This document shows positions 11,541 to 37,467 of a stretch of DNA of 64,000 nt, piece after piece (the stretch's first letter is position 1; every line of letters begins with the position of its first letter). Origin of the DNA: a bacterium (GTDB taxonomy: Bacteria; Patescibacteriota; Minisyncoccia; Phycocordibacterales; UBA2100); assembly GCA_030648265.1 (NCBI GenBank), contig JAUSHX010000028.1:249-64248 (forward strand), read 5' to 3'. The notes beneath the pieces are model-generated. The model was not told the DNA's origin. It saw only the letters and a list, made by a program, of their open reading frames with translations, and ran no database searches. Both the position numbers and the translations under genes were made by a program.

Positions 11541-11581
11541 CTGTGTGATATTATTAGGTATTAATTAATAATAATTTAGTT

Positions 11582-12064: not shown

Positions 12065-12110
12065 ATCGGGATTTTATCAGGCATTAATTAGTAATAATTT
12101 AATCATTAGT

Positions 12111-16244: not shown

Positions 16245-18700
<2,456 letters not shown>

Positions 18701-18719
18701 GGTATAGCCATTAGAATAT

Positions 18720-20144: not shown

Positions 20145-20271
20145 CAAGCCCCGAGATGACAGGACCATTTTTCGGGCCCCGCCTCCAAGATAAATCCTAA
20201 ACAAGTCTATTTACGGGGCGAGCCCCGTGGAGAACCGATGCGCGGTTCTCTTTACGGGGTATAATCTCCCC

Positions 20272-20979: not shown

Positions 20980-21104
20980 TCTGCCTTGAGATTTTATCGC
21001 GTCGTTTTTCCCGCGCATAGCCACGTGACAAAATGACGCCAACGCAAGCGCTACTTTGTTTTTACGTGGTTGCGAGAGTTGGAAATTTGCAGTATATTCA
21101 CGCG

Positions 21105-21179
21105 AGCGGGGTGGAGCAGTAGTAGCTCGCAAGGCTCATAACCTTGAGGTCGCAGGTGCAATTCCTGTCCCCGCAACCA
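21105..21179 (+). tRNA. initiator tRNA-Met (CAT), CCA encoded
   Basis: AGCGGGGTGGAGCAG...GGCTCATAACC...CCCCGCAACCA. There is a 1:72 mismatch and three G-C pairs in the anticodon stem, as in bacterial tRNA-fMet. Confidence 0.85.
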
Positions 21180-21188
21180 CGTAAAACG

Positions 21189-21213
21189 AAAACCCCGCCA
21201 TTGGCGGGGTTTT
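21189..21213 (+). terminator. rho-independent terminator after tRNA-fMet
   Basis: AAAACCCCGCC-ATTG-GCGGGGTTTT. Confidence 0.7.
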
Positions 21214-21327
21214 CGTCACGTGGCTTGCGCCAGCAGGACATGTGTGAGCGAAGCGATTTACGTGGTTGAGCCGCGTGGTGAACGGAGTGAGCTTTACGCG
21301 GCAACTTATTCACGTAAGAATGTGTAC

Positions 21328-21591
21328 ATGTACCATGTTTACCTTTTAGAAAACCAAGACGACAAAAGTTGGTATATCGGCTACAGCGCCAATCTCAAAC
21401 AACGAATCGAGCGGCATCAAAAGGGTGATGGCGCTCGCACAACAAGTAGAAAGGAAAACTGGGATTTGATTTACTATGAAGCCTACAAAAACGAACAAGA
21501 TGCAAAAGGACGCGAGCGCTTCCTTAAAAGCGGGTCTGGCAGAAAGTTCCTAAAAAAACAGCTCGCACACTATTTGGTTAGTGAATTGTGA
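21328..21591 (+). CDS. stand-alone GIY-YIG nuclease (YhbQ/UPF0213-like)
   Basis: MYHVYLLEN..SWYIGYSANLKQRIERH..LIYYEAY..RERFLKSGSG. Confidence 0.75.
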   Translation: MYHVYLLENQDDKSWYIGYSANLKQRIERHQKGDGARTTSRKENWDLIYYEAYKNEQDAKGRERFLKSGSGRKFLKKQLAHYLVSEL

Positions 21592-21843
21592 CGCCATTTC
21601 CTGCCCCTGCAACACGGTTGTGACGCCAGGGAACCACATTCCCACAGGCGTCGAAAGTGCAAGAAGTCGGTACGGTACCGACTCCCATGGTCGGCTATAA
21701 AAGCGCATGAAACCACGCGAGTGGTTTTTGCGCATGCAATGTTCTCAACGTATTTTTGGTGCAATTCCAATTCTCGTGCAAATCAGTGATGTGTGTTGAA
21801 ATCGTGAAAATAGGCGTATTTCCTAAGTAATTCACGATTATGC

Positions 21844-21871
21844 TTGACTAAATCGTGAAAATCAATATACT
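21844..21871 (+). promoter_or_regulatory. sigma70-like promoter of fic with repeated AAATCGTGAAAAT boxes
   Basis: TTGACT-16 nt-TATACT. The box lies in the spacer (21850-21862), again at 21799-21811, and inverted at 21829-21840. Confidence 0.45.
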
Positions 21872-21898
21872 TTAGCGGACACAGAGAACAAATCGTAT

Positions 21899-22771
21899 AT
21901 GACAAAGACTCCTCAAACACTCAGCCAGATTAAATTGCTCCGCGAGCGCTACTATAAGGCGCTGCCGGGCAAAGAGTTGCTCATCAAGATTATCAATGAG
22001 TCGGAAATTCCCGAGCACGTTTATAATTCAAACGCTATAGAAAATAGCACGCTCACCCTAGAGGAGACCGAAAAAATTCTCCTCCAGATTGATCTTGGCC
22101 GATATGTAAACGAGCGGGAAATTTTTGAAGCGAGGAATCTCGCGCGCGTTGTTGAATATATAGAAACGAAAGCAAAAGAAGCCGAGCTCTCTTTGTCCGG
22201 CATATGCCTGCTTCATAAAATGCTTATTGCCAATATCCGCGACGATGTCGCCGGCAGGTTCCGTCAGACTGGCGAGTGGGTGCGCGTCGGCGCACACATG
22301 GGAGCAGACCCGAAAGACATTGAGCATCTTCTGACAAAAATGCTCACGACATACCACGCAAGCTCGCACGAGCATATTGTGAAGCGCATTGCCTGTCTTC
22401 ATCTCGCCATTGAACACATTCATCCATTTGTTGACGGCAACGGGCGAATCGGCCGCGTCATTAACAACTATGCACTCATTAGGGAGGGGTACGTGCCGAT
22501 TAATATCGCGTTCGTGAATCGCGCCCGCTATTATGATGCGTTCAAAGAGTCTGATGCGAGCGGCGCAACCTCGATTATGGAAGAGGTCGTTGGCCGTGCG
22601 CTTGCCACGAGCTACCACAAGCGCTTGGCATATCTTGAAGGCAAACACATCATCACTCTTGCCGAGTATGGCAAACAAAAAAAACTTTCTCACTCAAATC
22701 TCATTAACAAAGCTCACCGCCAGACCATCCCTGCCTTTCTTGAGAAAGGTGTATGGAAAATCGGAGTGTAG
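21899..22771 (+). CDS. Fic/DOC family protein
   Basis: Fic motif HPFVDGNGRIGR. Confidence 0.85.
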   Translation: MTKTPQTLSQIKLLRERYYKALPGKELLIKIINESEIPEHVYNSNAIENSTLTLEETEKILLQIDLGRYVNEREIFEARNLARVVEYIETKAKEAELSLSGICLLHKMLIANIRDDVAGRFRQTGEWVRVGAHMGADPKDIEHLLTKMLTTYHASSHEHIVKRIACLHLAIEHIHPFVDGNGRIGRVINNYALIREGYVPINIAFVNRARYYDAFKESDASGATSIMEEVVGRALATSYHKRLAYLEGKHIITLAEYGKQKKLSHSNLINKAHRQTIPAFLEKGVWKIGV

Positions 22772-23014
22772 TATTCGTGTAGTAAATACCCTCATAAACC
22801 CTTGCGTTCATCATATAAGCTTGTAGTTAGCTGTTAATCTACAAGCACAAGGAATGACGCAACCCCCGCTGTGAGCCCCGAGGCGAGCAGAGCGAGCTTT
22901 TCGGGGTGAGTCCAGACCTGTTCCGACGCCCCTAGTTGATAAGAAAATCCTTTAAAATAGAGCACGTAATATCGGCAGTATCAAAAAATTAAGATTTGTG
23001 GGATGATTTGATTG

Positions 23015-23677
23015 ATGAAGATTAAAGCACTTCCTGCGCACGAGAGGCCGCGAGAAAAACTCATGGAGAAAGGTGCGGAGAATCTGACCGATGTTGAGTT
23101 ACTCGCAATTCTTTTGCGCACTGGTCGCGCAGGAAAGAGCGCGCTTGATATTGCGGAAAGTATTCTCACAAAGTACTCAAAGAAAAGAATATTAGATATT
23201 ACGTTAGCCGACCTTAGAGCGATCAAAGGCATTGATGCGGGCAAGGCATGCACCTTGCTTGCGGCATTTGAGTTCACAAAACGTGCGACGGGCGCGCATA
23301 AAAATGGAAGGCCAATTATACAAAGCACTGAAGACGCACTGGCACAACTGCATGATGTTCGCTCGCATAAAAAAGAGCATTTCGTTGCGCTTTACTTAAA
23401 TGCTCGCAACGAGCTTGTGCATCGCGAAGATATTTCAGTTGGAACAGTAAACGCAAGCATCGTACATCCGCGCGATGTATTTGCCCCTGCGCTTGAGCAT
23501 AATGCTACGGTCGTCATAGTCGCTCACAATCACCCCTCCGGCAGTCCTGACCCATCGCCAGAAGATTACGATGTTACTGCTCGCCTTAAAGACGCGGGGA
23601 AGCTTATCGGGGTCCAGCTTCTCTACCACCTTATCCTCACCAAAGACGGTCATGCGACGATTCATCAGAACCCGTAA
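23015..23677 (+). CDS. radC: RadC-like JAB/MPN domain protein
   Basis: HNHPSGSPDPSPED JAMM motif and an N-terminal HhH region. Confidence 0.8.
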   Translation: MKIKALPAHERPREKLMEKGAENLTDVELLAILLRTGRAGKSALDIAESILTKYSKKRILDITLADLRAIKGIDAGKACTLLAAFEFTKRATGAHKNGRPIIQSTEDALAQLHDVRSHKKEHFVALYLNARNELVHREDISVGTVNASIVHPRDVFAPALEHNATVVIVAHNHPSGSPDPSPEDYDVTARLKDAGKLIGVQLLYHLILTKDGHATIHQNP

Positions 23678-23880
23678 TGCTAACTTTGTTTAGTTTCACT
23701 CCTCGAATGTGAAAAAACTAGGCTAGTTTGTTTAATGAGAAGCCCGCAATTATCACCCACTCAATTACTTAAGAATTGGTTAAATATCACTTAAGTTTAA
23801 GTAATCTGCATATTTGGGCTAGGAATTTCCACATGCAGTATTGACAAGTATTTCACATATGATACACTATTGTCATAGTT

Positions 23881-24501
23881 ATGAAAAGCGCTAAGAATCT
23901 ACTCGAGCAGCTCAAATCCTTGCCTTATTTCACCAAGGAGTCTGTTTTGCAGCTTAGCAGACCGTACGGCCTTGCAAAAACAACGGTTGACACATACATC
24001 AGCCGCTCCATGAAGCGCAAAGACATCCTTTCGCTAAGGAGGGGGCTATATGTATCTGCCGACTTTTACAACAAGAACAAGAGTGACACCTCGTATCTTT
24101 TCTTCCTTGCAAATGTTATCCGCAAGCCTTCCTATGTAAGTTCGTGGGCGGCGTTGCAGTACTATGGTCTTGCGACGGAAGCAATCCACACCATTACGTC
24201 CGTTACTTCCAAGGTGACGCGTACATACGTTACAAAGGCAGGCAACTTTGTCTACTCGTCGATAAAGGACGAACTATTTTCTGATTCAGTCTTGATAAAA
24301 GGAAAGTTCGACTTCTTTATCGCCACTCCGGCAAAGGCTTTGTTTGACCTGTTGTATGCTAAGACTCGTCAGTTTCAGGGAGTTGCGTTCGAGCATATTC
24401 CAAGACTCGTCGAAGAGCTACGCATCGATATTGATGAAATGGACAAATCAGAAAGAGAGAAATTTTATATGATGGTAAAGAAATATACGCACCATGGATA
24501 A
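23881..24501 (+). CDS. AbiEi-like antitoxin / transcriptional regulator
   Basis: wHTH-type N-terminus, SYVSSWAALQYYGL motif, 8-nt overlap with the downstream NTase gene. Confidence 0.5.
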   Translation: MKSAKNLLEQLKSLPYFTKESVLQLSRPYGLAKTTVDTYISRSMKRKDILSLRRGLYVSADFYNKNKSDTSYLFFLANVIRKPSYVSSWAALQYYGLATEAIHTITSVTSKVTRTYVTKAGNFVYSSIKDELFSDSVLIKGKFDFFIATPAKALFDLLYAKTRQFQGVAFEHIPRLVEELRIDIDEMDKSEREKFYMMVKKYTHHG

Positions 24502-25780
24502 TCAGATTCTCAGCGTGCTTAAGCAGAGACTCCAGGAAGTTGTCGCGTTGGGCGTTGCCGATGCCGAAACACAGCGCAATGCACTGAAAGAGGAGCTTCA
24601 GTACTATGTACTCGATTTTATCTATCACCACCAGGAATACAAAAGATGGGTGATGTACGGCGGTTCCGCGTTGCGTATTTGTCACGGCTTGGACCGAATG
24701 TCTGTCGACCTTGACTTCGAGGTTGAACATCCCATTACTGATGCATTTCTCACAGACCTACAGAATGAAATCGGAGAGCATTTTTCAAGCGCTTACAATG
24801 TTGGTTCGGAATCGTTGACGGTAAAAACCAATCATGGCCGTGGACTAACGCTCCGCTTTATCATCGGCGACGAACTGGGGTTTGGCCACACATCCAATCA
24901 GGTACATGTGAAGATAGACCTCAATAATTTCATGGCCCCCAAGACGGTTATCGAGCGCCGGCCAATCAACCACAACCAGCTTTCATTCGTTATCGTGACC
25001 TACAATATGTCAGCGCTCATGGCGAGCAAGATTGCCGCCATATTCTTGTGCGGTCGGCGGGGTATCGGAGAAGCGGTGTATGAAGAGAAAGGCAGAGACA
25101 TCTACGATTTACTCTGGTACATGGGCAAGAAGACTGTGCCTGACCTTGATTATCTGAACGCAAAGAAAGTTGAAGAAGCTAAAGACATCCGCACGCTTTT
25201 CACTAAGCTCACGATACAGATGAACAAAGTGAACAATGAAAATCTGAAGCAGGATCTCACGCCGCTTTTCACCAACCAGGGATTCATCACTCACTGGCTT
25301 GAAAACTGGCGCGAGAGTTTTTTCCACTTCATGGATGCTTATAAGATTCGTACCGTAACAAAGCTTGAAGGTGTGCGGGTGTTTGAGGATTTCAACTCCG
25401 ACGTATTTTCATTTGTGTACGCATACTCCACGGCAGAGGGAGATTCGGTGCGGGTTGCGTACCTCATCAGTGACTACTGGATGGACTTCAAGGACGGCGA
25501 TATCCCGACGGTCATAGATAACTTTGTAGACGAGCATATCGAATTTGCCGCAAATGGCGTATCAAGTCGACCCGCATCACAGAAAAAGCTCAAACAGTAC
25601 GCAACTATGTTTTATGCTAAAACCGAAGCGTATTTCAAAAAGACCGGACGCATCATGATAGGCGATACTATCGCGACAAAGCTCATCCGCATGACTGCCG
25701 ATAAACTGAACCAGAAAGAGCAGATTGTGCTCAACAAATCCGCCTTGTTGTCATGCGAGCTTGACGACCTGCTAAGATAG
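24494..25780 (+). CDS. AbiEii/AbiGii-family nucleotidyltransferase toxin with long C-terminal extension
   Basis: GGSALRICHGLDRMSVDLDFEV NTase motif. At 428 aa it is longer than the size I recall as typical for this family. Confidence 0.6.
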   Translation: MDNQILSVLKQRLQEVVALGVADAETQRNALKEELQYYVLDFIYHHQEYKRWVMYGGSALRICHGLDRMSVDLDFEVEHPITDAFLTDLQNEIGEHFSSAYNVGSESLTVKTNHGRGLTLRFIIGDELGFGHTSNQVHVKIDLNNFMAPKTVIERRPINHNQLSFVIVTYNMSALMASKIAAIFLCGRRGIGEAVYEEKGRDIYDLLWYMGKKTVPDLDYLNAKKVEEAKDIRTLFTKLTIQMNKVNNENLKQDLTPLFTNQGFITHWLENWRESFFHFMDAYKIRTVTKLEGVRVFEDFNSDVFSFVYAYSTAEGDSVRVAYLISDYWMDFKDGDIPTVIDNFVDEHIEFAANGVSSRPASQKKLKQYATMFYAKTEAYFKKTGRIMIGDTIATKLIRMTADKLNQKEQIVLNKSALLSCELDDLLR

Positions 25781-25785
25781 AAGGT

Positions 25786-25887
25786 ATGCGCTACACACTT
25801 TTTGAACAACTGAAGAAGGTCTTGGAAAAGGACGAGCGATTGGTGGCCGAGGGGGAATTAAATCGAGCGACATTCTCACATTCTTGA
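25786..25887 (+). pseudogene. 33-codon ORF stub truncated by the first palindrome
   Basis: MRYTLFEQLKKVLEKDERLVAEGELNR.. then a stop inside hairpin 1. The resemblance to N-termini of some RM-type proteins comes from memory only. Confidence 0.25.
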
Positions 25888-26006
25888 GAATGTGAGAATG
25901 TCGTGGGAGGGGGAGAATCTATTCTAGTATTTTGCAAAATACTAGAATAGATTGGGAAGGGCGACGGGGCGGGTCATTTCAATGTTTTGCAAAACATTAG
26001 AATGAC
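25869..26006. repeat. array of three AT-rich palindromes separated by G-tracts
   Basis: Hairpin 1 at 25869-25902 (15-bp stem), hairpin 2 at 25916-25953 (perfect 38-nt palindrome), hairpin 3 at 25973-26006 (2 mismatches). The linkers include GGGAAGGGCGACGGGGCGGG. Confidence 0.85.
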
Positions 26007-26057
26007 GGGGGATAGAAAATAACGGGGGGGAGGGATAGGGAAAAAGGAACATTATTA

Positions 26058-26421
26058 CGCTTAATAATCGTTTGACACCTGTTTCTGTGCCTGTTGCCCG
26101 ACTACGCTGGAGCTCCGCTGGACCGTCTACAGGTGCCTATCATGACCGATAGGCCTGCGATTTGTATCCACGCTACGCGCGGACAAATCGGGAGCCTGAC
26201 ACCTGGTGTTTGTTTACGTCGAAACGGTACCGTCTACAGGCGAATTAACAAATTCGTGGCTCGGCCATAAACTTTGCTGACCGATAGACTCCATTTCGAC
26301 GCGATCTTTACTGGCGACGTAGAGCGAGTGTGATGCGGAAGCGCAGCTTCCGCATCACCGAGCCGAGGAGTCAGAAACCGTCAGCCGGTTTTCGCTTAAT
26401 AATCGCCTACCACCTGCTTCT
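26058..26421 (+). repeat. non-coding segment bounded by 29-nt imperfect direct repeats with internal repeated boxes
   Basis: CGCTTAATAATCG..ACCTG.TTCT occurs at 26058-26086 and 26393-26421. Inside, TGACACCTG, CCGTCTACAGG and TGACCGATAG each occur twice. Confidence 0.6.
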
Positions 26422-26478
26422 TTTGAGGAGTACAATGAGCCCTAACGTTTTTGAGTACTGAATTTATAAACGCAGAAT

Positions 26479-27072
26479 ATGAATCAAATTGTCTACATCT
26501 TAATAAATGAGTCTATGCCTGAATTTGTGAAGATAGGCTTTACTCATGGTGATGTAAACGAAAGAATCAGGCAGTTAGATCGGACAGGCGTACCTCTTCC
26601 GTTTGAAGTTTACTACGCTGCAACAGTGGAAGACGCAGAAAAAGAAGAAAAATGGTTGCATTCTATTTTTGCTGATCGTCGGGCACGGGATAGCCGAGAA
26701 TTTTTCAAGATGAATCCTGAATATGCGGCGCTTGCATTAAAACGAGTAGAAATTAGAGAAACTAAGATTTATAGCGTACTGACCCCAGAACAGGAAAAGG
26801 AAGTCGATCAAGTAAAAGAAAGACGCTCAAGATTTCATTTCGCACAGTACGGAATTCCAGTCGGATCTAAACTTACTTTTACGAGAGATTCGGATATTGT
26901 TGCCGAAGTAGTAGAAAACGACAAAATAAAGATTGGAGACAAGGTTGATTTTCTATCAAATGTGGCCCGTGATTTATTGGGATACAGGCGAAGACCTCAA
27001 GGCACTTTGTATTTTGAATTTGAGGGCGAGATCTTAGATGATAGACGCAGAAGAATGGAGGAAGAAGATTAG
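26479..27072 (+). CDS. T5orf172 / GIY-YIG-like domain protein
   Basis: VYILINESMPEFVKIGFT...ERIRQL...PLPFEVYY...EKWLHSIF...REFF pattern. Confidence 0.65.
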   Translation: MNQIVYILINESMPEFVKIGFTHGDVNERIRQLDRTGVPLPFEVYYAATVEDAEKEEKWLHSIFADRRARDSREFFKMNPEYAALALKRVEIRETKIYSVLTPEQEKEVDQVKERRSRFHFAQYGIPVGSKLTFTRDSDIVAEVVENDKIKIGDKVDFLSNVARDLLGYRRRPQGTLYFEFEGEILDDRRRRMEEED

Positions 27073-27173
27073 ACAGGAGGCGGCGGCGCGGCAGGTTTCC
27101 CGGAAATGAGGATTTGTGGGATGATGTTCTGGCGATGGTAAACAATGGACTGGATGTTGCAACAAGGATTCAG

Positions 27174-28055
27174 TTATCTGTAATAATTCAGTAGGACTTC
27201 GAGGGTCAGGTCTACGCCTCTTGTGCGGAGTTCTTTAATTACTTTTCCAGTGTAAAGCTTTTTAAGCATTTCACTTTTTGACGCATCTTCCGCATTGTGT
27301 ATTTTTCTGTGACAATTTGGACATAAAGGCACAATGTTTACTGGAACATCAATACTGTGCGGGAAGTCTTCCTGATTAGAGATGGGTATTATATGATGCA
27401 TTTCAACGTATTGCCCCTCGAGTGTGGGGCTAAAAAAGGTCTTGTGCGATGGATCATAAGTACAGAGGTTGCCAGATAAAATAAGTGCGAGTTTAGCTAT
27501 CCTTGGGTTGCCCCGATACCCAGTAGATGAATTTTTTGTCTGTTTTCTAGGCTTTGCGATTGGTCCCTCCGGCAATGGTTCAATCGGATCCGCGATGCGC
27601 ACTGCAGTCTGGAACATCTCATCAGTTGTGTCTATGACGGACTCCCCCCTTTCTATTGCGGAGATGATTCGCTGAGCCTCCTCAATGGTGACTGTGTCTG
27701 ACGCTGCAAGACCGGAGAGGTCTTTCAGCCTGTATTCGTGACCAGTGCCGTTAGGAGATTCGAATACACGATGTGCCAATCTGCCATCCCCCTGGTTAAG
27801 CTCACTCCGATATTGCGCTGTCCAGTTACTGCCGTGATGAAACTCGTGCCTCCAAAGTTCTGAAAAGGGGTTGGATCTGAAATTCTCGATAGGTAAGTAT
27901 TTCCCAGGTTTTGCGATGGACAATGCCGAAAGAATTATTGCAAATGAGAGGCGGGTGCTATCTTTATATTGGAAAACCTCGGCTAACTCACTGGCGGTCA
28001 TTTCAGAAATCATAGCTGTATAGTTATACACATCCGAAAATAAGTAAAGCACCAA
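27174..28055 (-). CDS. HNH endonuclease (candidate restriction nuclease)
   Basis: C-terminal YVEMHHIIPIS...NIVPLCPNCHRKIHN. Divergently transcribed from the methyltransferase fusion. Confidence 0.7.
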   Translation of the reverse strand: MVLYLFSDVYNYTAMISEMTASELAEVFQYKDSTRLSFAIILSALSIAKPGKYLPIENFRSNPFSELWRHEFHHGSNWTAQYRSELNQGDGRLAHRVFESPNGTGHEYRLKDLSGLAASDTVTIEEAQRIISAIERGESVIDTTDEMFQTAVRIADPIEPLPEGPIAKPRKQTKNSSTGYRGNPRIAKLALILSGNLCTYDPSHKTFFSPTLEGQYVEMHHIIPISNQEDFPHSIDVPVNIVPLCPNCHRKIHNAEDASKSEMLKKLYTGKVIKELRTRGVDLTLEVLLNYYR

Positions 28056-28130
28056 TCTTAGTGCATAATATGCATGTTACTGCTCGTATTGGTTGATTAA
28101 TTTACCACCTACACTCAATTGGTCGAATTC

Positions 28131-31031
28131 ATGGTCTATATATCAACGAAAAAAGCCTCAGATATTTTGGGAGTATCTCCAACAACCATGAGACGATATG
28201 CGGATGCTGGGAGTTTGCCCGTTGTTCGCTTGTCGCAATCGAGGCACCGCCGTTTTGCCGTATCTGACGTTAGTAAGTTGTTGACGGACCTTTCAGTAAG
28301 AGGCGATGAGAATGGGTTCCACAAGAAGAATAGTCCATCTTTCGCCAAACCGCATCCTTCTCACTATCTATTACATAAATATTGGGGCAGAAAGGCCCAT
28401 AATATTGTCGAGAACTATGTTAAGCGATACACCCGAAAAGGAGATGTGGTACTTGATCCGTTCATGGGGAGTGGCGTTGTATTAATTGAATCGGCGAAAG
28501 CACATCGTAAGGCTATTGGAATCGACATTAACCCTTTGTCGAAGTTCATTGTTGACGGTACTACGCAGAAAGTTAACCCCGAGGAACTCGCCGAGGTCTT
28601 TGGAAACATTCTGTCTCAGTTGGAGGCAGCATTTGAATACTACAATATGACAAAATGTTTGCACTGTAGACTCGATTCAACCATAGAAACTACGGTATGG
28701 AATGAGACGGAGCCAGCAGTCATCAGATTCCGCTGCCCCGTTCACGGCGTCGGTGTTAAAGTCCCGTCCCAAAGTGATAAGAGGGTTATTAGAGAGGCAC
28801 GCACTCTGTTTGAAGATCTTGAGGCGGCACACGAATTACAATACCCCAAGGATGAGATTTTAAAATATGTAAAAAGAAGTGGAGTATCGACTATAGATGC
28901 GCTCTTTACATCCCGGGCGTTAGTGCAGTTGTCCCACCTGCTTATCCTAATAGAAAAAGTGGAAGTCCAGTCTGTCCGCGACACTTTAAAATTAATATTT
29001 AGTTCAATGTTACCGAACGTCTCGAAGATGATACCTGGCGATATTGAAAAAGGAACGTATAAGTCTGGTTGGGTCATCAGCAAATTTTGGGTTCCCAAAA
29101 TACATACGGAACGCTCCGTGTTGCATTGCTTGAAACTCCGATTCCAATCTGTTTTCAAAGGGAAAAAAGAGTTAAAAGATTTAGACGAGAGCTTAATTCA
29201 ATCGCACATAGCAGATAGTAAGAAACTGGCTCTCGATGATAATTCAGTCGATTATATTTTTACTGACCCGCCTTATGGAGAGAGTATTGCATACCTCGCC
29301 TTGAGTCATTTTTACAATGCCTGGTTTAAAATGCTACCTGAATATTCTAATGAGATTATTATCGATCCATATAGAAAGATTTCGAAAGAAGATTTTGCAA
29401 GAAATATCCAAAAATGTTTTGGAGAGATGTATAGGGTTCTTAAACCAAATAGGTTTCTATCCTTCACCTTTCACAATAGGAATTTGGATGTGTGGAAGAC
29501 TATCCTAGAGGCATGCCTAAAGTCGGGATTTACACTTAAGGACATTGTCTTTCAGCCACAGGCAGTTTCGTCGGGAACACAGGGTATCAACAGAAAGAAT
29601 ACCTTATACGGGGATTTCATCTATACATTTCAAAAACCTAAGAAAAAGAAGATTCATGAGGGGTTCAAATACTTCGATAACGCCTACGGTTTTCTGGTTA
29701 ATACAATAAATTCTCTATTAGTATCAAAAGGGCAGGTTTCTACGGCTGAATTGTATGAGCATATAATACCTATTATTGTGAAGAATCACGCATATCTGGA
29801 TAAGGATGGGAAAATTATCGATTTGGAGACATTGATCAGTAATAATTTTGAGTATAAGAAGACAGAGAAAGGTGATCGGTGGCGTGCCCTTTCCAGAGTT
29901 GCCAACACATCACGTTTCACGGTCGTGGACTTATTTGCGGGGGCGGGCGGTTTTTCTGAGGGATTTAAACACGCGGGGTTTGACATTGCTGTTGCGGTTG
30001 AAAATGACTCACGTCATAGCGAAACGTATGTGCACAATCACCCAAATACTAGATTGATAGTGGACGGAGTTGAAAACATCTCAACATCAAAGAGGCGGGG
30101 GAGGTTCTCAATTTCAGAGTTTCTAAGGGAGAATCATAAATCTTGCAACATCATCATTGGAGGTCCTCCATGTCAGGGATTCAGCATGGCAGGTTCGCGA
30201 ATTAGAAGAAAAAGAAGATTCTTATCGGATAGACGAAATACCCTGTTTCTTGAATACGTAAATTTGGTTGAAGATTTAAATCCAGAAGTATTTATACTGG
30301 AAAATGTACCGGGAATACTCAACTATGATAACGGAGCCGTAAAAGAAGAGATCATATCGAAATTCGCAGAGCTTGGATATGATGTGCATGCTGAAATCTT
30401 AGACGCAAGTAAGTATGGTATTCCTCAATCTAGAAAGCGGGCTTTTTTCATTGGGAACAGATTGGGCATTCCGTCGAAAACTCTATTTCCGAATTCACAA
30501 TGTGATAACGAAACTGTGTCAGTATGGGATGCGATTAGTGACCTTCCTCAAATTATGAGCGGTGAAGGAGGTCAGGTTATAAAAAACAATATGATGGTAC
30601 CTCAGTCACATTATCAGCAAATAATGCGATTGGAAAACGAGGACTGTATTTTCAATCATGAAGCGCCAACGCATAGTCAGGCCACTCTAGATGTTATGAA
30701 ACTCATAAAACCAGGTAAGGGATTGAAGGATCTACCTAAGGAATTTCACACAAGATCGGTTCATAGTGGTGCATATGGTCGAATGGAAAAGGATAGGCCA
30801 GCGTTCACCTTAACGACTCGTCTAAACACTCCATCGGTTGGAAGAATTACGCACCCAGTACTGCATAGAACGATCACGCCTCGAGAGGCTGCCAGGTTAC
30901 AGAGTTTCTCTGATTCGTATCGATTCTTCGGTGACGTGACAACTCAGGGAATTCAAATTGGCAACGCAGTACCTCCACTCCTGGCTGAATTAATTGCCAA
31001 AGAGATTATGAAAAAAGCTTTTGATCGGTAG
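28131..31031 (+). CDS. fusion protein: excisionase-type HTH + N4/N6 DNA methyltransferase + C5 cytosine methyltransferase
   Basis: HTH: ASDILGVSPTTMRRYA. N4/N6 domain: motif I VLDPFMGSGV, then about 270 aa later motif IV FTDPPYG. C5 domain: DLFAGAGGFSEGF, GGPPCQGFS, ENVPG, QSRKR, GNAVPP. Confidence 0.8.
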   Translation: MVYISTKKASDILGVSPTTMRRYADAGSLPVVRLSQSRHRRFAVSDVSKLLTDLSVRGDENGFHKKNSPSFAKPHPSHYLLHKYWGRKAHNIVENYVKRYTRKGDVVLDPFMGSGVVLIESAKAHRKAIGIDINPLSKFIVDGTTQKVNPEELAEVFGNILSQLEAAFEYYNMTKCLHCRLDSTIETTVWNETEPAVIRFRCPVHGVGVKVPSQSDKRVIREARTLFEDLEAAHELQYPKDEILKYVKRSGVSTIDALFTSRALVQLSHLLILIEKVEVQSVRDTLKLIFSSMLPNVSKMIPGDIEKGTYKSGWVISKFWVPKIHTERSVLHCLKLRFQSVFKGKKELKDLDESLIQSHIADSKKLALDDNSVDYIFTDPPYGESIAYLALSHFYNAWFKMLPEYSNEIIIDPYRKISKEDFARNIQKCFGEMYRVLKPNRFLSFTFHNRNLDVWKTILEACLKSGFTLKDIVFQPQAVSSGTQGINRKNTLYGDFIYTFQKPKKKKIHEGFKYFDNAYGFLVNTINSLLVSKGQVSTAELYEHIIPIIVKNHAYLDKDGKIIDLETLISNNFEYKKTEKGDRWRALSRVANTSRFTVVDLFAGAGGFSEGFKHAGFDIAVAVENDSRHSETYVHNHPNTRLIVDGVENISTSKRRGRFSISEFLRENHKSCNIIIGGPPCQGFSMAGSRIRRKRRFLSDRRNTLFLEYVNLVEDLNPEVFILENVPGILNYDNGAVKEEIISKFAELGYDVHAEILDASKYGIPQSRKRAFFIGNRLGIPSKTLFPNSQCDNETVSVWDAISDLPQIMSGEGGQVIKNNMMVPQSHYQQIMRLENEDCIFNHEAPTHSQATLDVMKLIKPGKGLKDLPKEFHTRSVHSGAYGRMEKDRPAFTLTTRLNTPSVGRITHPVLHRTITPREAARLQSFSDSYRFFGDVTTQGIQIGNAVPPLLAELIAKEIMKKAFDR

Positions 31032-31078
31032 TATGGGGAATAGGGTGTCAGGTGCCATTTTTGCGTTAGAATTGGAAC

Positions 31079-31405
31079 ATGCCCGACGAAACCCAGGCCC
31101 CTGCGACCGAGCCAGAAACACTGAATGAGCCAGTGGCTAGTAGCCAGCAGCCCGTAGCAATACCAGAAACAGACGTATCAAGTCCTGCGGGCGATATTTC
31201 AAGCACCGAAACCCCGCCTGCGCCCCAAAACGGCCCTGGGGACATCGCGACCCCGGTTCCTGTTAAAGATGCAAATTCGGAGCCGAATTTGGCTGAGAGC
31301 AGTGGCGAAAATACGGAAAAACAGCCTGAAATCGGAGCCGCGGGAGCGGCCGCTACTGCGGTTGCTCCCGCGGCTTCATCCCCCTCGTTTATCGGCGATT
31401 TTTGA
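31079..31405 (+). CDS. low-complexity Pro/Ala/Glu-rich ORF (doubtful)
   Basis: 108 aa with no fold-like segment. Its stop overlaps the TTG of the next ORF. Confidence 0.25.
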   Translation: MPDETQAPATEPETLNEPVASSQQPVAIPETDVSSPAGDISSTETPPAPQNGPGDIATPVPVKDANSEPNLAESSGENTEKQPEIGAAGAAATAVAPAASSPSFIGDF

Positions 31406-32310
31406 AAGATAACGGTCTCGCTGTTGGCCAACCAGGAAGATTTGAATTAACAAAAGCGGGCGTGTTGTTGTTTGGTAAAAATCCTTCCATTGCACTTAAA
31501 AATAAGTGTGGAATTAAAATCTCTCATTATTATGGAACAAAACCGAGCCATACCGGAAAACCAAATTTCGTTACTCGTCCGTTTACGGTTGAAGGGCCTT
31601 TGTTGAAGCAGATTGAGCAGGCAATTGAGTACTTCAGGAATATTGTAAAGAATTCGCCACCAAAACTTAGCGGTGCGTCTTTTAACCCTACTTTTTTGGT
31701 TCCGGAATGGGCATTCCAAGAAGCCATAACAAATGCGGTTATCCACAGAAACTATTTTGTCCAAGACGATATACAAGTCAGGTTTTTTGACGATCGCGTT
31801 GAAATCGAAAGCCCCGGAACATATCCAGGCCATATTACTGTTGAAAATATCAGGACCGAACGGTTTGCGAGAAATCCGCTGATTTTGCGAACTCTCAATC
31901 GTTTTCAAATTGCCCCTAACTTGGATATTGGCGAGGGCGTAGATCGCATGTTTAAAGTTATGAAAGAGCAAAACCTGTATGAACCACTTTTCTTTCCGCC
32001 CACGATACGTCCCAATTCTGTTTTATTGTTTTTGCTTAATATTCAGAAAGTTGAGTATTGGGACACTGTCGGTAAGTATTTAGATAAAAATTATCGCATC
32101 TCTAACAAAAGAGCGCGCGAGATAACCAGTGTGCAAGATATTTTGAAAATGTCTCGACTGTTACATAATTGGGTTGAAAAAGGATTATTGGAGAAAATGG
32201 GCAAAGCCAAGAAGGACTGCTATTACCGTAAACCAGGACAGGAAATCCCCAAGGGTTTATTTTCAATGGGGGGTGATAATAAAACCGGCAAAGGGAATTT
32301 ACACCCTTAA
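31402..32310 (+). pseudogene. 5'-truncated AlbA_2/HATPase_c_4-type putative DNA-binding protein
   Basis: It begins near the end of the AlbA_2 domain (LTKAGVLLFGKNP), then QEAITNAVIHRNY ... IESPGTYPG ... RNPLI ... IGEGVDRMF. It opens with TTG and lacks the N-terminal ~100 aa. Confidence 0.5.
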
Positions 32311-32364
32311 AATAGGCATATTTTGGTAGGCCTTATTCTCACAGACACATTAAAGGAAGAAATT

Positions 32365-34158
32365 ATGTCAACGCCGCAATCTGAAAATTCATATATTGCC
32401 AATGAAATCTTGCCTCTCTTGGCAAGTGGTTTTGGCTATCCGATTCACGATTCTGTCAGGGTAAAAATCAACGATGTCCCGATTTTCCGGCCGAGTGGTG
32501 GTCGAGCAGGCACTATGGATATTGTCTACTATCACAATGGTGAGCCAGTACTACTCGTAGAAGCTAAGAGAAAACACAAATCGCATGATGCGGCATTGCA
32601 AGAGGCCCTTAAATATTTACTTAATTTTCCCGTTAAACGTGAAGAGTTCGCTCCATCCGGCATACCCCCGAAATTTTTGGCAACAACTGTCGGCAAAGAA
32701 ATAAAGTTTTATAAATGGTCGTACGATTATTCTCATCAGATACCGGATTTTTTGACAGAAGAAGTTGAGATTCTGTCGTTTAATAGACTTCTTGAGTATT
32801 ACGGTTTAAACGAAAAGTATCAGGCACGTATTTTGGATGTGAGAGGATTTAAGACAGATTTTTTTGACGAATTAGTAGCAATTTTTAAAACAGATGCGAA
32901 GGAGGAAAGAATCACCGCAGATATTATCAAGAAGGTTTCACTGCAGATTCTTAATTTTTTGGCTTATGGAGATAAGTTTGCCGGTCAGCTGCCCTATACC
33001 GGTTTGTCTATACAGGGACAAAAGGCAGTGCGTGACTTGTTTGACCGCTTTAATCTAACATCCTCGCTTGGACCGGAAGCCGCCAGAGAGTTCCGCAGAG
33101 CAATTCTACGCTCCTTTCAGGGTGGCGGATTTAACCAGTATCTTACAGAACAGTGCGTGATTGCTTTCATGGTCGGTCTAGTAGGGGGTTTTAGACCGGA
33201 AACCACGGTGCTTGATTTCGAGTGCGGAAGCGGTGGATTCTTAGCAGCCGCTGTTGAGCTTGGCGTCGGTTTGGAAAATATACGCGGCATAGATATCGAG
33301 GAATTACCTTGTATTGTTGCCAAGACCTATTTAGCTCTATATTTCAAGAAAACGGGTGAATGGATTGATGCTCTACCAGTGAAAAAAGATAACGGCCTGC
33401 TCGACCAAGGGAGTAATTGGGATGTTGTAATCGGCAATCCAGCTGGTGGGAATAAATACGAGCACGGAGGTTTAGTAAAAATTGGAAGTCACCTTGACCG
33501 AGACTTGGATAGAAACGGTCGGCTGGACGACAATCTTTCCGAGTATAACCTTTCCATTCAGCAGGCCGTGATGAGTACAAAGATTGGCGGAAAAATCTGC
33601 CTGATTTTGCCGGAAGGATTTTTTTCGAACTCACAGGATGAGTTTCTGCGCAAATTTGTGGCCAAGCATTGTAAAGTGTTGGCGATTGTTAGTCTGCCGC
33701 GCGGTGTCTTCAAGAAAGGGACCTCAACGCGTCGACTAAGGGGTGGTGCGCAAACCGCCTCTATGAAAATGTCTATTTTTTGTGCAGAGAAAGTGAAAGA
33801 GATTGATAAGGAAGATCTGATTGGCACCGACGATTCTTCTACCGTGAGTTATCCAGTATTTCTTGTGAGCGTAAACGAACCAACATCAACAAGCGGGTCG
33901 GTTTGTGACTGGCTTGAACCGCGCCTCGTTGCCGTATTAGAGCAGTGGGAAGTATGGCGCAGCAGCGAGCATCTTGAAGCAAAGCCGATTACCAAAATCG
34001 CCGCATTAGTAAGTGAAAAGAGAAAGAAACATTTGCCCGCCGTGCCGTTACCTTTCGCACAAAGTCCAGATGCCGATACCAAGTCGGCGCGCAAACGAGC
34101 ACAGCCGAAGACGCAGACCAAGGTCAACAAAGATTTGGACGATATTTTCTCGCAATAA
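32365..34158 (+). CDS. PD-(D/E)xK nuclease-like N-terminus fused to an N6-adenine-MTase-like domain with atypical motif IV
   Basis: MDIVYYHNGEPVLLVEAK (D...EAK), motif I LDFECGSGGFL, and VIGNPAGG where NPP[FYW] is expected. SD AAGGAAG lies upstream of the ATG. Confidence 0.6.
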   Translation: MSTPQSENSYIANEILPLLASGFGYPIHDSVRVKINDVPIFRPSGGRAGTMDIVYYHNGEPVLLVEAKRKHKSHDAALQEALKYLLNFPVKREEFAPSGIPPKFLATTVGKEIKFYKWSYDYSHQIPDFLTEEVEILSFNRLLEYYGLNEKYQARILDVRGFKTDFFDELVAIFKTDAKEERITADIIKKVSLQILNFLAYGDKFAGQLPYTGLSIQGQKAVRDLFDRFNLTSSLGPEAAREFRRAILRSFQGGGFNQYLTEQCVIAFMVGLVGGFRPETTVLDFECGSGGFLAAAVELGVGLENIRGIDIEELPCIVAKTYLALYFKKTGEWIDALPVKKDNGLLDQGSNWDVVIGNPAGGNKYEHGGLVKIGSHLDRDLDRNGRLDDNLSEYNLSIQQAVMSTKIGGKICLILPEGFFSNSQDEFLRKFVAKHCKVLAIVSLPRGVFKKGTSTRRLRGGAQTASMKMSIFCAEKVKEIDKEDLIGTDDSSTVSYPVFLVSVNEPTSTSGSVCDWLEPRLVAVLEQWEVWRSSEHLEAKPITKIAALVSEKRKKHLPAVPLPFAQSPDADTKSARKRAQPKTQTKVNKDLDDIFSQ

Positions 34159-34173
34159 ATTGCAGGTACTGTC

Positions 34174-34305
34174 ATGGACGAGGAACTCTTCGAACTCGCA
34201 AAAGATAACGACCTAACGCTTGATGAGGCCCAGGAGGTTCAGGATTTGGCTGATGAGACGGGTCTGGATCTCAACGAAGCATTGGAAATTTGGCAGGCAC
34301 AATAA
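34174..34305 (+). CDS. 43-aa highly acidic small ORF
   Basis: MDEELFELAKDNDLTLDEAQEVQDLADETGLDLNEALEIWQAQ. It is absent from the ORF track because it is shorter than 60 aa. Confidence 0.3.
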   Translation: MDEELFELAKDNDLTLDEAQEVQDLADETGLDLNEALEIWQAQ

Positions 34306-34672
34306 TAGCAGCCCTGAAACCAGCTGTTGGTAACTCGCTTCGCAACTCGCTAATACTAAGCTAGGGTGCTCAACGATAGCCAAAAGTGCTATCATGTTCT
34401 GTACACCACCAATATCGGCTCGAAAGAGCGTCGACCTAAACTATTCGCAAGAGTGGCATGGTCGAGAAGACCCAATCACGATACTGAACCCGCCTGTTTG
34501 GGCTGTCCCCACTTCTTGCGAATTTCATCTTGACCATGTATACTGCTACGCATAAACACCTTGTCGTAGCTTCGGTTACGGTAAGTCAACGAAAGGGGGC
34601 TTAGGCCCCCTTTTGTTATGTATGGTATTCTTGAATCCATGGTATTCTGAACTTCAGATTCACACTTTCTAT

Positions 34673-35173
34673 ATGGCAACGAAAATAAACCAAGCAAAGT
34701 ATCGCAACGCCATCCTGTTTTTTGCGAGTAGGATTCAAAATGGCACGCTCGGCAAGTTGAAGCTAATGAAGCTTCTCTACTATTTCGATTTCGATTTCTT
34801 CGAGAAATATGGGCGCTCGGTTACAGGTGATAAATACCTACGTTTCGAGAATGGTCCCGTGCCACGTATGGCAGAGAAGATTATAAAGCAGATGGATGGC
34901 AAAGAAATCAAGATTTCGAGGCGAAAGGTAGCTGATGGCTATAAAGACCAGATGCATATAGAAGCTCTTGTGGCCTTTGATATTAGTGTTTTCGAAAAAG
35001 AAGAAATCCTTCTTCTCGAGGAACTTGCGTCCAAATGGGAACGCTTTAGCGGTGCCGAAATGAAAAGTGCGACTCATGGTGAAGCACCATGGATTGCCAC
35101 CGAAGCGAATGGCGTCATCGATTACAATCTCGCCTATTATCGAGACACATACGGCGAAATGGCAAAGGTCTAG
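34673..35173 (+). CDS. DUF4065 (Panacea/SocA-like) antitoxin-type protein
   Basis: LGKLKLMKLLYYFDFDFFEKYGRSVTGDKYLRFENGPVP pattern. Confidence 0.65.
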   Translation: MATKINQAKYRNAILFFASRIQNGTLGKLKLMKLLYYFDFDFFEKYGRSVTGDKYLRFENGPVPRMAEKIIKQMDGKEIKISRRKVADGYKDQMHIEALVAFDISVFEKEEILLLEELASKWERFSGAEMKSATHGEAPWIATEANGVIDYNLAYYRDTYGEMAKV

Positions 35174-35184
35174 CGGAGAACCTC

Positions 35185-35523
35185 ATGGATCTTTGTCGTC
35201 ACGAAGATATCGAGAAAGATTTTCATGCGCTGAAACGCTTTGCTGCGCCACAAGCTTCACTTGAAGCGTGGGAGCGACTCTTTTCACTCAAAGGTCTCAA
35301 AGAAACACCGGGAATTGATGCGTTTCCTGGTTTTGGGGGTGCGAAGATATATAAAGGTCGCGTGGTTCCTCTCAAAGAGAATGTTGGTAAGTCAAAGGGT
35401 TACCGGGTGATTTTTGAATTGCAGGAAGAACAGCGCTATCGCATCGTAGTTTTCTCACGACATGGGATTTATCATGACGAACAAGATTTGATAAATCTTG
35501 TCAGGATCAGACTCAAGCGTTGA
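35185..35523 (+). CDS. RelE/ParE-superfamily-like toxin
   Basis: KIYKGRV...GKSKGYRVIFEL...YRIVVFSRH pattern, 112 aa, 11 nt after the DUF4065 gene. Confidence 0.5.
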   Translation: MDLCRHEDIEKDFHALKRFAAPQASLEAWERLFSLKGLKETPGIDAFPGFGGAKIYKGRVVPLKENVGKSKGYRVIFELQEEQRYRIVVFSRHGIYHDEQDLINLVRIRLKR

Positions 35524-35599
35524 TTTCCGGTACGGTACCGCTCGGCCTCTTCGGCCTTCGAAATGCGCCGAAAGTCGTCGAATACTCTTTGAACTGACC

Positions 35600-35721
35600 C
35601 ATACCGACAGGCATCGCTCGGGCGTACTATAGAGAGGTGAAAGAACCTTTGGTTTGCTTACTGGGTGGGGTAGGGTACCGCCAAGGGCAACAGAAAAACC
35701 GCCCGTATGGCGGTTTTTCTG
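35600..35721 (+). promoter_or_regulatory. possible T-box-like leader plus terminator upstream of ilvD
   Basis: AGAGAGGTGAAAG (35631-35643) and CTGGGTGGGGTAGGGTACCGCC (35661-35682, compare the T-box GGGTGGTACCGCG). The terminator CAGAAAAACCGCC-CGTAT-GGCGGTTTTTCTG (35691-35721) has a 3' strand that can alternatively pair with ACCGCC of the box. Confidence 0.3.
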
Positions 35722-35772
35722 TTGGAGGATTGAACTTATTATCCAACGCGGGTATACTTCCACCACGTATAT

Positions 35773-37467
35773 ATGGCCAAGTCTGTTAATCTAAAGCCCC
35801 GCAGTTCGGTGATGACGGAAGGTGATGGGCGCGCTCCAAATCGTGCCATGCTTCGCGCGACCGGATTTACCGATGCGGATTTCAAGAAGCCGATAATCGG
35901 CATAGCGAGCACGTGGAGCGAGGTGACGCCGTGCAACATGCATATCAACAAGCTTGCCGAGCACGTGCACGCGGGTTGCCGCACGGCCGGCCTCGTCCCA
36001 CAGACATTCGGCACAATCACCGTAAGCGACGGCATCTCAATGGGACATGAGGGCATGAAATATTCTCTGGTGAGCAGGGAAGTCATCGCCGACTCCATAG
36101 AAGTTGTCGCCGGAGCGGAGAGATTTGACGGCCTTATAACAATCGGCGGGTGCGATAAGAATATGCCCGGCTGTATGATGGCGATTTCGCGCGTGAACAC
36201 GCCGAGTATTTTTATCTACGGCGGCACAATTATGCCAGGCAAGTTGCACGGCAAAAACATTGACATCGTGAGTATTTTTGAAGCGGTGGGGCAATTTCAG
36301 GCAAACAAAATTAGTGCGAAAGAACTGAAGGCAGTTGAGTGCAATGCGTGTCCGGGTCCCGGTTCATGCGGTGGCATGTACACGGCCAACACAATGTCTG
36401 CCGCGATAGAAGCGATTGGAATGTCACTCCCGTATGGCGCGACGACTCCGGCAATCAGCAAGCAAAAAGCCGACGAGTGCGAAGTGGCAGGTCGTCAAAT
36501 AAAAAATTTGTTGAAGCTCCGACTGCGCCCGAGCGATATCATGACTCGGAGCGCATTTCTGAATGCGATTACGGTCGTTATGGCTGTGGGCGGCTCCACC
36601 AATGCAGTGCTCCATCTTCTCGCTATGGCAAAGGCGGCGAATGTAAATTTGACGATGAAAGATTTCAACACGATTTCCGACCGCACGCCTTTACTTGTGG
36701 ATATGAAACCGGGCGGTAAATATGTGACGGTGAATTTGCATAACGCGGGAGGAATTCCCGGAGTTATGAAAGAGCTTTTGGATGCCGGGCTTCTGAACGG
36801 CGATTGCATGACAATAACAGGGCGTACTGTCGCGGAGAATTTGAAAGGCGTGAAAAGAAAGAACTCGCTCCATCCTGTCATTCACACGGTTAAATCTCCG
36901 GTGAAGAGTCGCGGGCAAATCGTCATCCTCCATGGAAATCTTGCGCCCGAGGGCGGTGTTGCGAAGATTAAGGGCATCAAATCTCTGAAGCACAAAGGGC
37001 CTGCAAAGGTCTTTGAAGACGAGGAAGAGGTTTTCACCGCGCTCAAAAAAGGTTCAATAGTCGCGGGCGACACTATCGTCATCCGCAACGAAGGCCCCAA
37101 GGGAGGCCCAGGTATGCGGGAAATGCTTTCAGTAACCTCGGCTATCATAGGACAAGGGCTCGGCGATTCCGTGGCACTTATAACGGATGGACGATTTTCA
37201 GGAGGCACATACGGATTGGTTGTGGGACACGTTGCACCGGAGGCGTACGTGGGCGGCCCCATAGCGCTCGTCAAGAATGGCGATATCATTACGCTTGATG
37301 TGGAAAAAAAGACGATGTCTGTTGCTGTTTCGGATGCCGAATTCAAGCGCAGGCGAGGCGTATGGAAACAGCCGAAGCCCAGATACAAGAGCGGGGTGTT
37401 GCGAAAATACATAGAGTTGGTTTCATCGGCGAGCCAAGGCGCAGTAACAGATAATTTTGATTTATGA
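35773..37467 (+). CDS. ilvD: dihydroxy-acid dehydratase
   Basis: 564 aa, IlvD/Edd family motifs ([21 protein letters not shown]). Confidence 0.9.

Follow-up and report, generated by a model that had tools for sequence, protein, structure and literature searches.

Between an initiator tRNA gene and ilvD, the window analysed here (64,000 nucleotides of contig JAUSHX010000028.1, from a Patescibacteria metagenome-assembled genome, MAG) carries a segment of 14.5 kb, positions 21229-35749, in which genes of several defence-related families stand side by side. A preliminary description, made from the letters of the stretch and a list of its open reading frames (ORFs), had proposed that this is an accessory island adjacent to tRNA-fMet. 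The genes that it listed were found where it had placed them, and almost all of its domain calls were upheld by hidden Markov model (HMM) profiles of Pfam, PADLOC and NCBIfam; start codons were refined by homologue lengths. The features of the locus, in order, are the following.

21105-21179, plus strand: tRNA-Met(CAU) of the initiator type, the left anchor of the island (ARAGORN; Rfam 58 bits; 93.5% identical to the tRNA of the related genome L003)
21186-21216, plus strand: terminator hairpin 3' of the tRNA, a perfect 15-nt inverted repeat and the last pre-island sequence in common with L003
21328-21591, plus strand: small GIY-YIG protein of 87 aa (Pfam GIY-YIG 2.5e-17)
21589-21613, plus strand: degenerate second copy of the tRNA 3' end, GACGCCATTTCCTGCCCCTGCAAC, found by local alignment scan 410 bp downstream of the tRNA, just after the GIY-YIG gene
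21899-22771, plus strand: Fic-domain protein, class II (self-inhibited) (Pfam Fic 3.6e-21; PADLOC PDC-S04 1.8e-32, SoFic 6e-28)
23012-23677, plus strand: RadC, full-length (UPF0758_N + JAB; Pfam 2.2e-37 and 1.9e-24)
23881-24501, plus strand: AbiEi antitoxin/regulator (PADLOC AbiEi 2e-34; NCBIfam TAA_AbiEi 1.8e-06, below cut-off)
24494-25780, plus strand: AbiEii nucleotidyltransferase toxin (Pfam AbiEii 1.2e-20; PADLOC 2.3e-30)
25868-26006, no strand assigned: three long palindromes rich in AT, each with a G-rich tract after it (fold z-score -9.5)
26050-26478, no strand assigned: unexplained non-coding stretch of ~430 nt, bracketed by a 32-nt direct repeat (26055-26086 / 26390-26421)
26479-27072, plus strand: T5orf172/MUG113 (GIY-YIG-like) protein (PADLOC PDC-S57 2.2e-60, residues 2-195 of 197)
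27174-28013, minus strand: HNH endonuclease of 279 aa (Pfam HNH 7e-08; motif HH...N...CPNCH...H)
28119-31031, plus strand: HTH_17 + N6_N4_Mtase + C5 DNA_methylase fusion of 970 aa (Pfam DNA_methylase 2e-67, N6_N4_Mtase 1.4e-22, HTH_17 8e-09)
31079-31405, plus strand: low-complexity ORF of 108 aa, rich in P, A, E and S, with a GC-rich hairpin inside (31336-31375) and no family match
31402-32310, plus strand: ORF of a 5'-truncated AlbA_2/HATPase_c_4 gene, the fragment starting at 31351 (Pfam HATPase_c_4 5.4e-17)
32365-34158, plus strand: PD-(D/E)xK nuclease + gamma-methyltransferase-like subunit of 597 aa (weak HSDR_N + N6_Mtase/Eco57I)
34174-34305, plus strand: acidic micro-ORF of 43 aa with an internal repeat (DLTLDEAQEV / GLDLNEALEI)
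34673-35173, plus strand: Panacea (SocA_Panacea = DUF4065) antitoxin (Pfam SocA_Panacea 1.4e-17)
35185-35523, plus strand: putative toxin of 112 aa (predicted RelE/ParE-superfamily fold)
35773-37467, plus strand: ilvD, core gene of the right flank (Pfam ILVD_EDD_N 3e-134; collinear with L003 from window 35750)

Borders, composition and integration site

The borders of the island were set from an empty site in L003. By blastn, this genome is collinear with both flanks of the window, yet its tRNA-Met lies only ~320 bp from ilvD. The left block that the two share comprises an amidase gene, a 250-aa ORF, tRNA-Met and the terminator (window 18417-21228), the right one ilvD, ilvC and further downstream genes, from window 35750 on. 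Homology to the window thus stops at 21228 and restarts at 35750, while in L003 the edges of the two blocks (9939 and 9978) are 38 bp apart; at the left edge, L003 9871-9939 matches window 21162-21228 at 91%. The empty site is known from this one genome, the sole relative that keeps both flanks. Two other close ilvD relatives carry different, unrelated genes upstream of ilvD, so relatives do not share the gene order as part of a core genome; in L001 (91%), the nearest ilvD relative, the neighbourhood of this gene is different again. Relatives retrieved in the ilvD protein search were labelled Kaiserbacteria, Saccharibacteria and unclassified 'bacterium', and many of the island proteins have homologues in Patescibacteria.

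The composition of the segment also sets it apart, with a GC content of 0.448 vs 0.497-0.500 in the flanks and 0.493-0.508 in all equal-sized (14.5-kb) flank windows. Values for third codon positions (GC3) span 0.33 to 0.585 among the island genes, a heterogeneity consistent with a mosaic island; the left-hand genes Fic and RadC have a GC of 0.488, near the host value. Megablast of the island against plasmid and phage collections gave no match. The accessory nature proposed for the segment is therefore borne out by the empty site in L003, by the lower GC and by modules that recur in unrelated neighbourhoods, as described below.

The tRNA-Met(CAU) at the left border displays the hallmarks of an initiator when read from its sequence, namely A:A, unpaired, at 1:72, the pair A11:U24 and, in the anticodon stem, two of the three G:C pairs; this agrees with the adjacency to tRNA-fMet claimed earlier. 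Its T-loop reads TGCAATT, with G in place of the conserved U55, in both genomes (window 21153-21165; L003 9653-9665). A 12-mer, TTTACGTGGTTG, has three exact copies, within window 21055-21270 only, at 21061 (+), 21174 (-) and 21257 (+); the one at 21174 overlaps the tRNA 3' end and its trailer, and the one at 21257 lies ~30 nt inside the island. The tRNA gene is moreover bracketed by a 20-nt inverted repeat (21055-21074 / 21172-21191), outside of which lies a second one (21019-21033 / 21211-21225).

Integration into a tRNA gene classically leaves a second copy of the tRNA 3' end. The degenerate copy at 21589-21613 matches L003 9862-9886 at 92% over 25 nt, including the non-tRNA bases GACGCCA, and L003 has a second copy of its own, GACGCCATTTCCTGTCCCCGCAACCA, 190 bp beyond its tRNA. 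The 190-bp non-coding remnant that separates the two in that genome (L003 9678-9868) was left by an earlier insertion at this hotspot; the present tRNA copy of L003 has no encoded CCA. At the ilvD-side border no third tRNA-end copy was found, either by exact and mismatch search or by local alignment scan; the 12-mer with two mismatches at 35760 was rejected as a border copy, being at chance level and within the conserved ilvD leader. Neither a recombinase or integrase domain nor a fragment of one was detected in the annotated ORFs, the six-frame translations of all intergenic gaps or the antisense ORFs, and in this respect the preliminary description, which saw no recombinase, was right. Given the tRNA-end copies, the lack of one at the ilvD border and the absence of a recombinase, the site is a hotspot of integration; the island itself, however, is no simple element bracketed by attachment (att) sites, and at present it looks immobile.

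Both flanks deserve a brief comment. On the right, ilvD, a DsrE-like gene and ilvC occupy window 35773-38960, and the genes further downstream are collinear with relatives labelled Kaiserbacteria and Saccharibacteria (L002, L003); branched-chain amino-acid biosynthesis is atypical of Patescibacteria. On the left, the 250-aa ORF (20227-20979) between the amidase gene and the tRNA shows 79% DNA identity in L003 and has no Pfam, PADLOC or NCBIfam match; this conserved core gene has no assigned function.

Defence modules of recognisable type

Families of the kind found in defence islands had been named in the preliminary description, and the profile searches agree, by PADLOC and Pfam for AbiE, PDC-S04/SoFic, PDC-S57 and the type II methyltransferase with its HNH partner, and by the occurrence of a Panacea pair. 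In the Fic protein the catalytic motif HPFVDGNGRIGR fits HxFx(D/E)GNGRxxR, and the N-terminal inhibitory motif SNAIEN is also present; its SoFic match covers 203 of the 361 profile positions. Fic enzymes typically AMPylate target proteins, and on these motifs and matches the island protein is a candidate for a single-gene toxin or defence gene.

The AbiEi and AbiEii genes overlap by 8 nt. This bicistronic, overlapping order, together with the AbiEii/DUF1814 nucleotidyltransferase domain of the toxin, is that of the AbiE type IV toxin-antitoxin system (PMC3985639), from which the island pair differs in two respects: its AbiEii is 428 aa long, with a C-terminal extension of ~150 aa that has no assigned domain (149 aa, no Pfam match), and its AbiEi, also without a Pfam match, is recognised by PADLOC models only and falls under the NCBIfam cut-off. 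From family membership we predict a type IV toxin-antitoxin abortive-infection pair, in which the AbiEii nucleotidyltransferase toxin would be held in check by a DNA-binding AbiEi antitoxin.

The 970-aa fusion retains the catalytic motifs DPFMGSG, TDPPY, PPCQGFS and ENV, all readable in its translation. Homologues of the HNH protein (63% and 46% identity) lie divergently beside an HTH_17 + N6_N4 + C5 fusion of 969-979 aa in both of the contexts retrieved (L172, L173). In L173 (1-8668), an Omnitrophica contig, the HNH and fusion unit adjoins a tyrosine integrase, TraG/TrwB and SSB. The two genes thus appear to be a conserved type II restriction-modification (RM) unit with the HNH protein as probable restriction enzyme: the fusion would mark the host's own DNA at two sites, one methylated on adenine or at N4 of cytosine and the other at C5 of cytosine, and the HNH enzyme, encoded divergently, would cut incoming DNA that is unmethylated. 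A type IV methyl-dependent enzyme, suggested for the HNH protein by a weak PADLOC match (9e-08), was rejected, as the conserved pairing with the methyltransferase fusion favours type II. The low-complexity ORF that follows the fusion (31079-31405) is probably not a gene.

At the right end of the island, the Panacea gene is immediately followed by that of the 112-aa protein. For the latter there was no Pfam match at E<=1, no NCBIfam match at E<=0.01 and no relevant sequence match in the PDB, although it belongs to a family of 443 unannotated homologues at 65-87% identity, mostly from bacteria of the candidate phyla radiation. Its AlphaFold (AF2) model has a pLDDT (predicted local distance difference test) of 88.8, and the top 15 Foldseek matches of that model in the PDB are HigB, YafQ, YoeB and HP0892, with probability ~1, modest TM (template modelling) scores of 0.5-0.62 and E values of 2e-3 to 0.1. 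A RelE/ParE fold is accordingly probable as far as the model goes. Homologues of 110-113 aa come directly after a Panacea gene in L174-L177, which differ in their neighbourhoods, the pairing being kept in 2/2 contexts. Of the DUF4065/RelE-like pair proposed at first, the Panacea assignment and the conserved pairing stand; the RelE-like character finds no echo in sequence profiles and weak backing in the predicted fold. The arrangement resembles PanAT (PMC8832971), where a Panacea gene directly precedes a small gene of toxin size and the two stay together in unrelated neighbourhoods, and the published PanAT set includes mRNA-interferase and ParE-type toxins (PMC8832971). It differs in that the 112-aa family has no Pfam or NCBIfam model, its RelE/ParE kinship coming from predicted fold alone. 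In such a PanA-type type II pair the 112-aa toxin would probably act as a ribosome-dependent mRNase or inhibit growth in some similar way.

The stretches at 25.8-27.1 kb and 31-34.3 kb

The repeat-rich gap of ~0.7 kb noticed between AbiEii and T5orf172 measures 698 bp and holds three near-perfect palindromes plus the 32-nt direct repeat. The first palindrome (25868-25903) is 90% identical to another at 61857-61894, which is followed by TTTT, and the family is also present at L003 15897-15926; since only the palindromes of the gap recur in this way, we read them as genome-typical hairpins and not as island-specific signals. Long perfect palindromes, loop-free and with arms of 17-24 nt, occur in intergenic positions at 37819-37866, 61857-61894, 62670-62713 and 63338-63371. 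Those of the gap most likely form a stack of terminator-like hairpins where two modules meet. A mini-ORF at 25786-25887 was considered as the 5' stump of a methyltransferase gene and dropped, with no significant similarity in any fetched locus.

The non-coding stretch that follows (26050-26478) contains no ORF and gave no Pfam match in six frames. Rfam searches, run on the whole island and on the gap alone with lax filters, returned beyond the tRNA only sub-threshold hairpin noise. Relative to shuffled controls, its fold z-scores are -3.0 (plus strand) and -4.6 (minus strand); the stretch is not conserved beside any of 80 T5orf172 loci.

Those 80 loci, all from metagenomes, encode T5orf172 proteins with 75-90% amino-acid identity to that of the window, and DNA homology to them ends at the gene borders. 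A small ORF, mostly coding for an XRE-type helix-turn-helix (HTH) protein, abuts the gene upstream in 24 of 54 evaluable contexts, and another gene abuts it downstream in 32 of 55; a Pfam sample of the downstream genes included EcoRI-like, HsdM, Dam-like, N4/N6 methyltransferase and HsdR-like products and one Hypoth_Ymh. Among L092-L171, XRE-type HTH and T5orf172 genes stand at the 5' end of varied RM operons (e.g. L095 2796-4705, L143 2822-5180, L159 414-3774), with gene junctions that often read AAATAAATTTATG; L129 has three such junctions in succession, with tiny ORFs between them. In L109 and L114 a tRNA 3'-end fragment, GGTGGTTCGAATCCACCCGGGGGAGCCA, lies ~110 nt upstream of the T5orf172 start beside the stump of an HTH gene, without a complete tRNA (ARAGORN), and looks like another att-like scar beside a T5orf172 module.

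The T5orf172 gene of the window, by comparison, stands alone and has a short C-terminus: there are no XRE-HTH gene upstream and no RM genes downstream, and no trace of a decayed XRE-HTH gene was found in the gap upstream of it. The T5orf172/GIY-YIG-like domain is known from nucleases in phage-satellite conflict (PMC8263062, PMC8096241). The island protein resembles these nucleases of phage ICP1 and PLE (PMC8263062, PMC8096241) in its domain and in its full-length PDC-S57 match, and differs from its PDC-S57 relatives, which in about half of the loci lie between XRE-HTH and RM genes, in being alone. Its profile match makes it a candidate PDC-S57 nuclease, PDC-S57 being itself a candidate family in PADLOC.

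In the second stretch, full-length relatives of the HATPase_c_4 protein have 460-500 aa and align only from their residue ~190 on, in agreement with the claim that several island genes are truncated or degenerate. An intact AlbA_2 + HATPase_c_4 homologue in L179 aligns through its residues 181-389 with window 31351-31992. By this alignment the island gene is a pseudogene fragment without ~190 N-terminal residues.

The 597-aa protein belongs to a family of >300 members at 50-78% identity, with the conserved motifs D..EAK and LDFECGSGGFL and a non-canonical motif IV, GNPAG instead of NPPY. Its predicted fold is closest to a BsaXI RM subunit, BpuSI, DrdV and HsdM (best Foldseek match BsaXI 8w0p, E 2e-16), and the protein itself lacks a target-recognition domain. 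Elsewhere, in 8/8 contexts, the gene is preceded by genes for an SNF2 helicase (977 aa), an N6 methyltransferase and a half-specificity subunit, the latter pair being fused in some cases, and it is the last large gene of the operon; in three loci a conserved ORF of 93 aa comes next. These operons (L081 1262-8080; L084 1229-7800; L087 3098-9779; L088 3231-9782; L090 3246-9782; L091 132-6813; L178 1758-8585; L179 1606-8583) come from Niyogibacteria, Magasanikbacteria, Nitrospirae and unbinned contigs, and in L178 a large serine recombinase (11059-12459) lies near. The contexts of L173 and L178 show that modules of this kind travel on mobile elements elsewhere.

None of the SNF2, methyltransferase and specificity-subunit partners was found in the 64-kb window by tblastn with the three proteins, and DNA homology to the SNF2 operon begins at window 32360, 5 nt before the ATG of the 597-aa gene. 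This gene is therefore an orphan, and its product is probably inactive on its own. The SNF2 operon reaches the cut-off of no curated defence system, its SNF2 protein being DrmD-like (598 bits vs the NCBIfam DISARM cut-off of 950). DISARM was rejected for the 597-aa gene, as there are no Drm genes in the window save generic methyltransferase-level matches and the SNF2 relatives fall below the DrmD cut-off; MADS was rejected likewise (MAD2 62 bits vs a cut-off of 720, no other mad genes). The nearest described systems are Type IIB (BsaXI), IIG (BpuSI) and IIL (DrdV) enzymes, which share with the 597-aa protein an N-terminal PD-(D/E)xK domain followed by a gamma-class methyltransferase fold, and Type ISP enzymes, whose domain set is that of the SNF2 operon, there split over several genes (PMC3874165). 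The 597-aa family departs from all of these in its motif IV, GNPAG, without an aromatic residue, in the absence of a target-recognition domain and in having as motor a SNF2/DrmD-like helicase; in the window all the partner genes are missing as well. The 43-aa micro-ORF downstream (34174-34305) has no family match and is absent after the 597-aa homologues in the eight related operon contexts.

Origin of the island

Taken together, these results make it likely, in our judgement, that the segment is a strain-specific defence island, built by piecemeal gain and decay at a tRNA-fMet integration hotspot and now fixed in place. On this account the island would be a row of independent modules, not one machine, immobile since the recombinase or recombinases that brought material in were lost. 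Five modules look intact, namely the Fic protein, AbiEi/AbiEii, the T5orf172 gene, the type II RM unit and the Panacea pair, with functions predicted from their families. The remnants would be the truncated HATPase_c_4 gene, the 597-aa orphan of a four- or five-gene SNF2-dependent operon, and junction debris in the form of hairpins and ~430 bp of non-coding DNA. The likeness is to the tRNA-linked and defence islands described before (PMC3632139), with RM, toxin-antitoxin, abortive-infection and nuclease genes clustered beside a tRNA and absent from a relative, atypical GC, a part-duplicated tRNA 3' end and a mosaic, partly decayed content. The island differs from those in that neither an integrase nor a transposase is encoded in it, the whole is not surrounded by the tRNA-end repeat, and its host is from an uncultured Patescibacteria lineage.

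Several observations weigh against this account. The tRNA-end repeat brackets the GIY-YIG cassette only and not, as attL and attR would, the entire island, and with no such copy at the ilvD border the repeats do not show that an integrase carried in the main body. The empty site comes from a single genome, and the polarity of the event, insertion in the window and not deletion in L003, is inferred. RadC, a full-length housekeeping form, need not be defence cargo. Moreover, the 597-aa ORF is uninterrupted, keeps all the family-conserved residues and may still be functional, and the partners of the orphan may lie elsewhere in the genome.

The last point bears on where a new function could reside, which the preliminary description had expected, if anywhere, at 25.8-27.1 kb and 31-34.3 kb. 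The results did not support this, the former part consisting of genome-typical palindromes and a PDC-S57 gene parted from its frequent XRE-HTH/RM context and the latter of the truncated HATPase_c_4 gene and an orphan SNF2-operon subunit. It is unlikely, to our mind, that the 597-aa protein is the signature subunit of an undescribed, widespread SNF2-driven RM-like system (a split Type ISP/IIB of four or five genes) whose stranded copy is perhaps active, as a solitary nuclease binding S-adenosylmethionine (SAM) or by borrowing the neighbouring methyltransferase, or else that the 430-nt stretch is an RNA partner of the T5orf172 nuclease. That the poorly explained parts (26.0-26.5 kb with T5orf172, and 31-34.3 kb) should encode a new defence function, be it an RNA with the T5orf172 nuclease or the 597-aa protein, alone or with the neighbouring methyltransferase-HNH pair, seems improbable too. 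Such a function would draw on the intact 597-aa ORF with D..EAK, LDFECGSGGFL and GNPAG retained, on a non-coding stretch that folds better than shuffled controls (z -4.6 minus, -3.0 plus) between the arms of a 32-nt direct repeat, and on the lack of any match of these parts to a curated defence system above cut-off. However, the 597-aa family invariably follows SNF2, methyltransferase and specificity subunit (8/8) and has no target-recognition domain of its own, the gene directly upstream of it in the island is a truncated pseudogene, the non-coding stretch is unconserved beside the 80 T5orf172 homologues and matches no RNA family, and z-scores of such size are common in GC-mixed intergenic DNA with hairpins.

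The segment might instead be ancestral and lost from L003 by deletion, and so not an acquired island; only a single comparator genome keeps both flanks, and the near-host GC of Fic and RadC (0.488) and the housekeeping type of the full-length RadC would suit this. We nevertheless find this history quite improbable, as the GC of the segment lies 5 points under every flank window with GC3 varying from gene to gene, its modules recur singly in unrelated genomes and phyla, the duplicated tRNA 3' end and 190-bp remnant of L003 mark an insertion hotspot, and L001, the closest ilvD relative (91%), has another neighbourhood. The adjacency to the tRNA, the duplication of its 3' end and the presence of related modules beside integrases or serine recombinases in L173 and L178 could also speak for an integrative element that is still mobile, with its integrase acting in trans or encoded outside the window. 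This is highly unlikely: the island has no recombinase or fragment of one and no repeat at its ilvD-side border, the flanks are collinear core genes in L003, and truncated or orphaned cargo fits long residence and decay. As the source is a MAG contig (64,857 nt), and mobile, repeated modules are typical places of mis-joining, the juxtaposition might lastly be an artefact of assembly or binning, an idea that is scarcely credible when the segment sits in one contig whose flanks of ~21 kb and 28 kb are collinear with L003, two precise mis-joins at one intergenic site would be required, and no long repeats able to cause such joins are present.

A strain-specific island of piecemeal origin thus remains our preferred explanation. 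The island is real but ordinary, with four or five recognisable systems and broken leftovers and no sign of a new mechanism. The leads it offers are largely outside the window, namely the SNF2 operon, the portable pair of XRE-HTH and T5orf172 genes, and the large family of 112-aa toxins with Panacea antitoxins, and they leave that verdict unchanged. The window itself gives a picture of defence-gene turnover, with intact systems beside broken ones, and indicates that, like better-studied bacteria, Patescibacteria with reduced genomes retain defence genes and turn them over at a tRNA-fMet hotspot.

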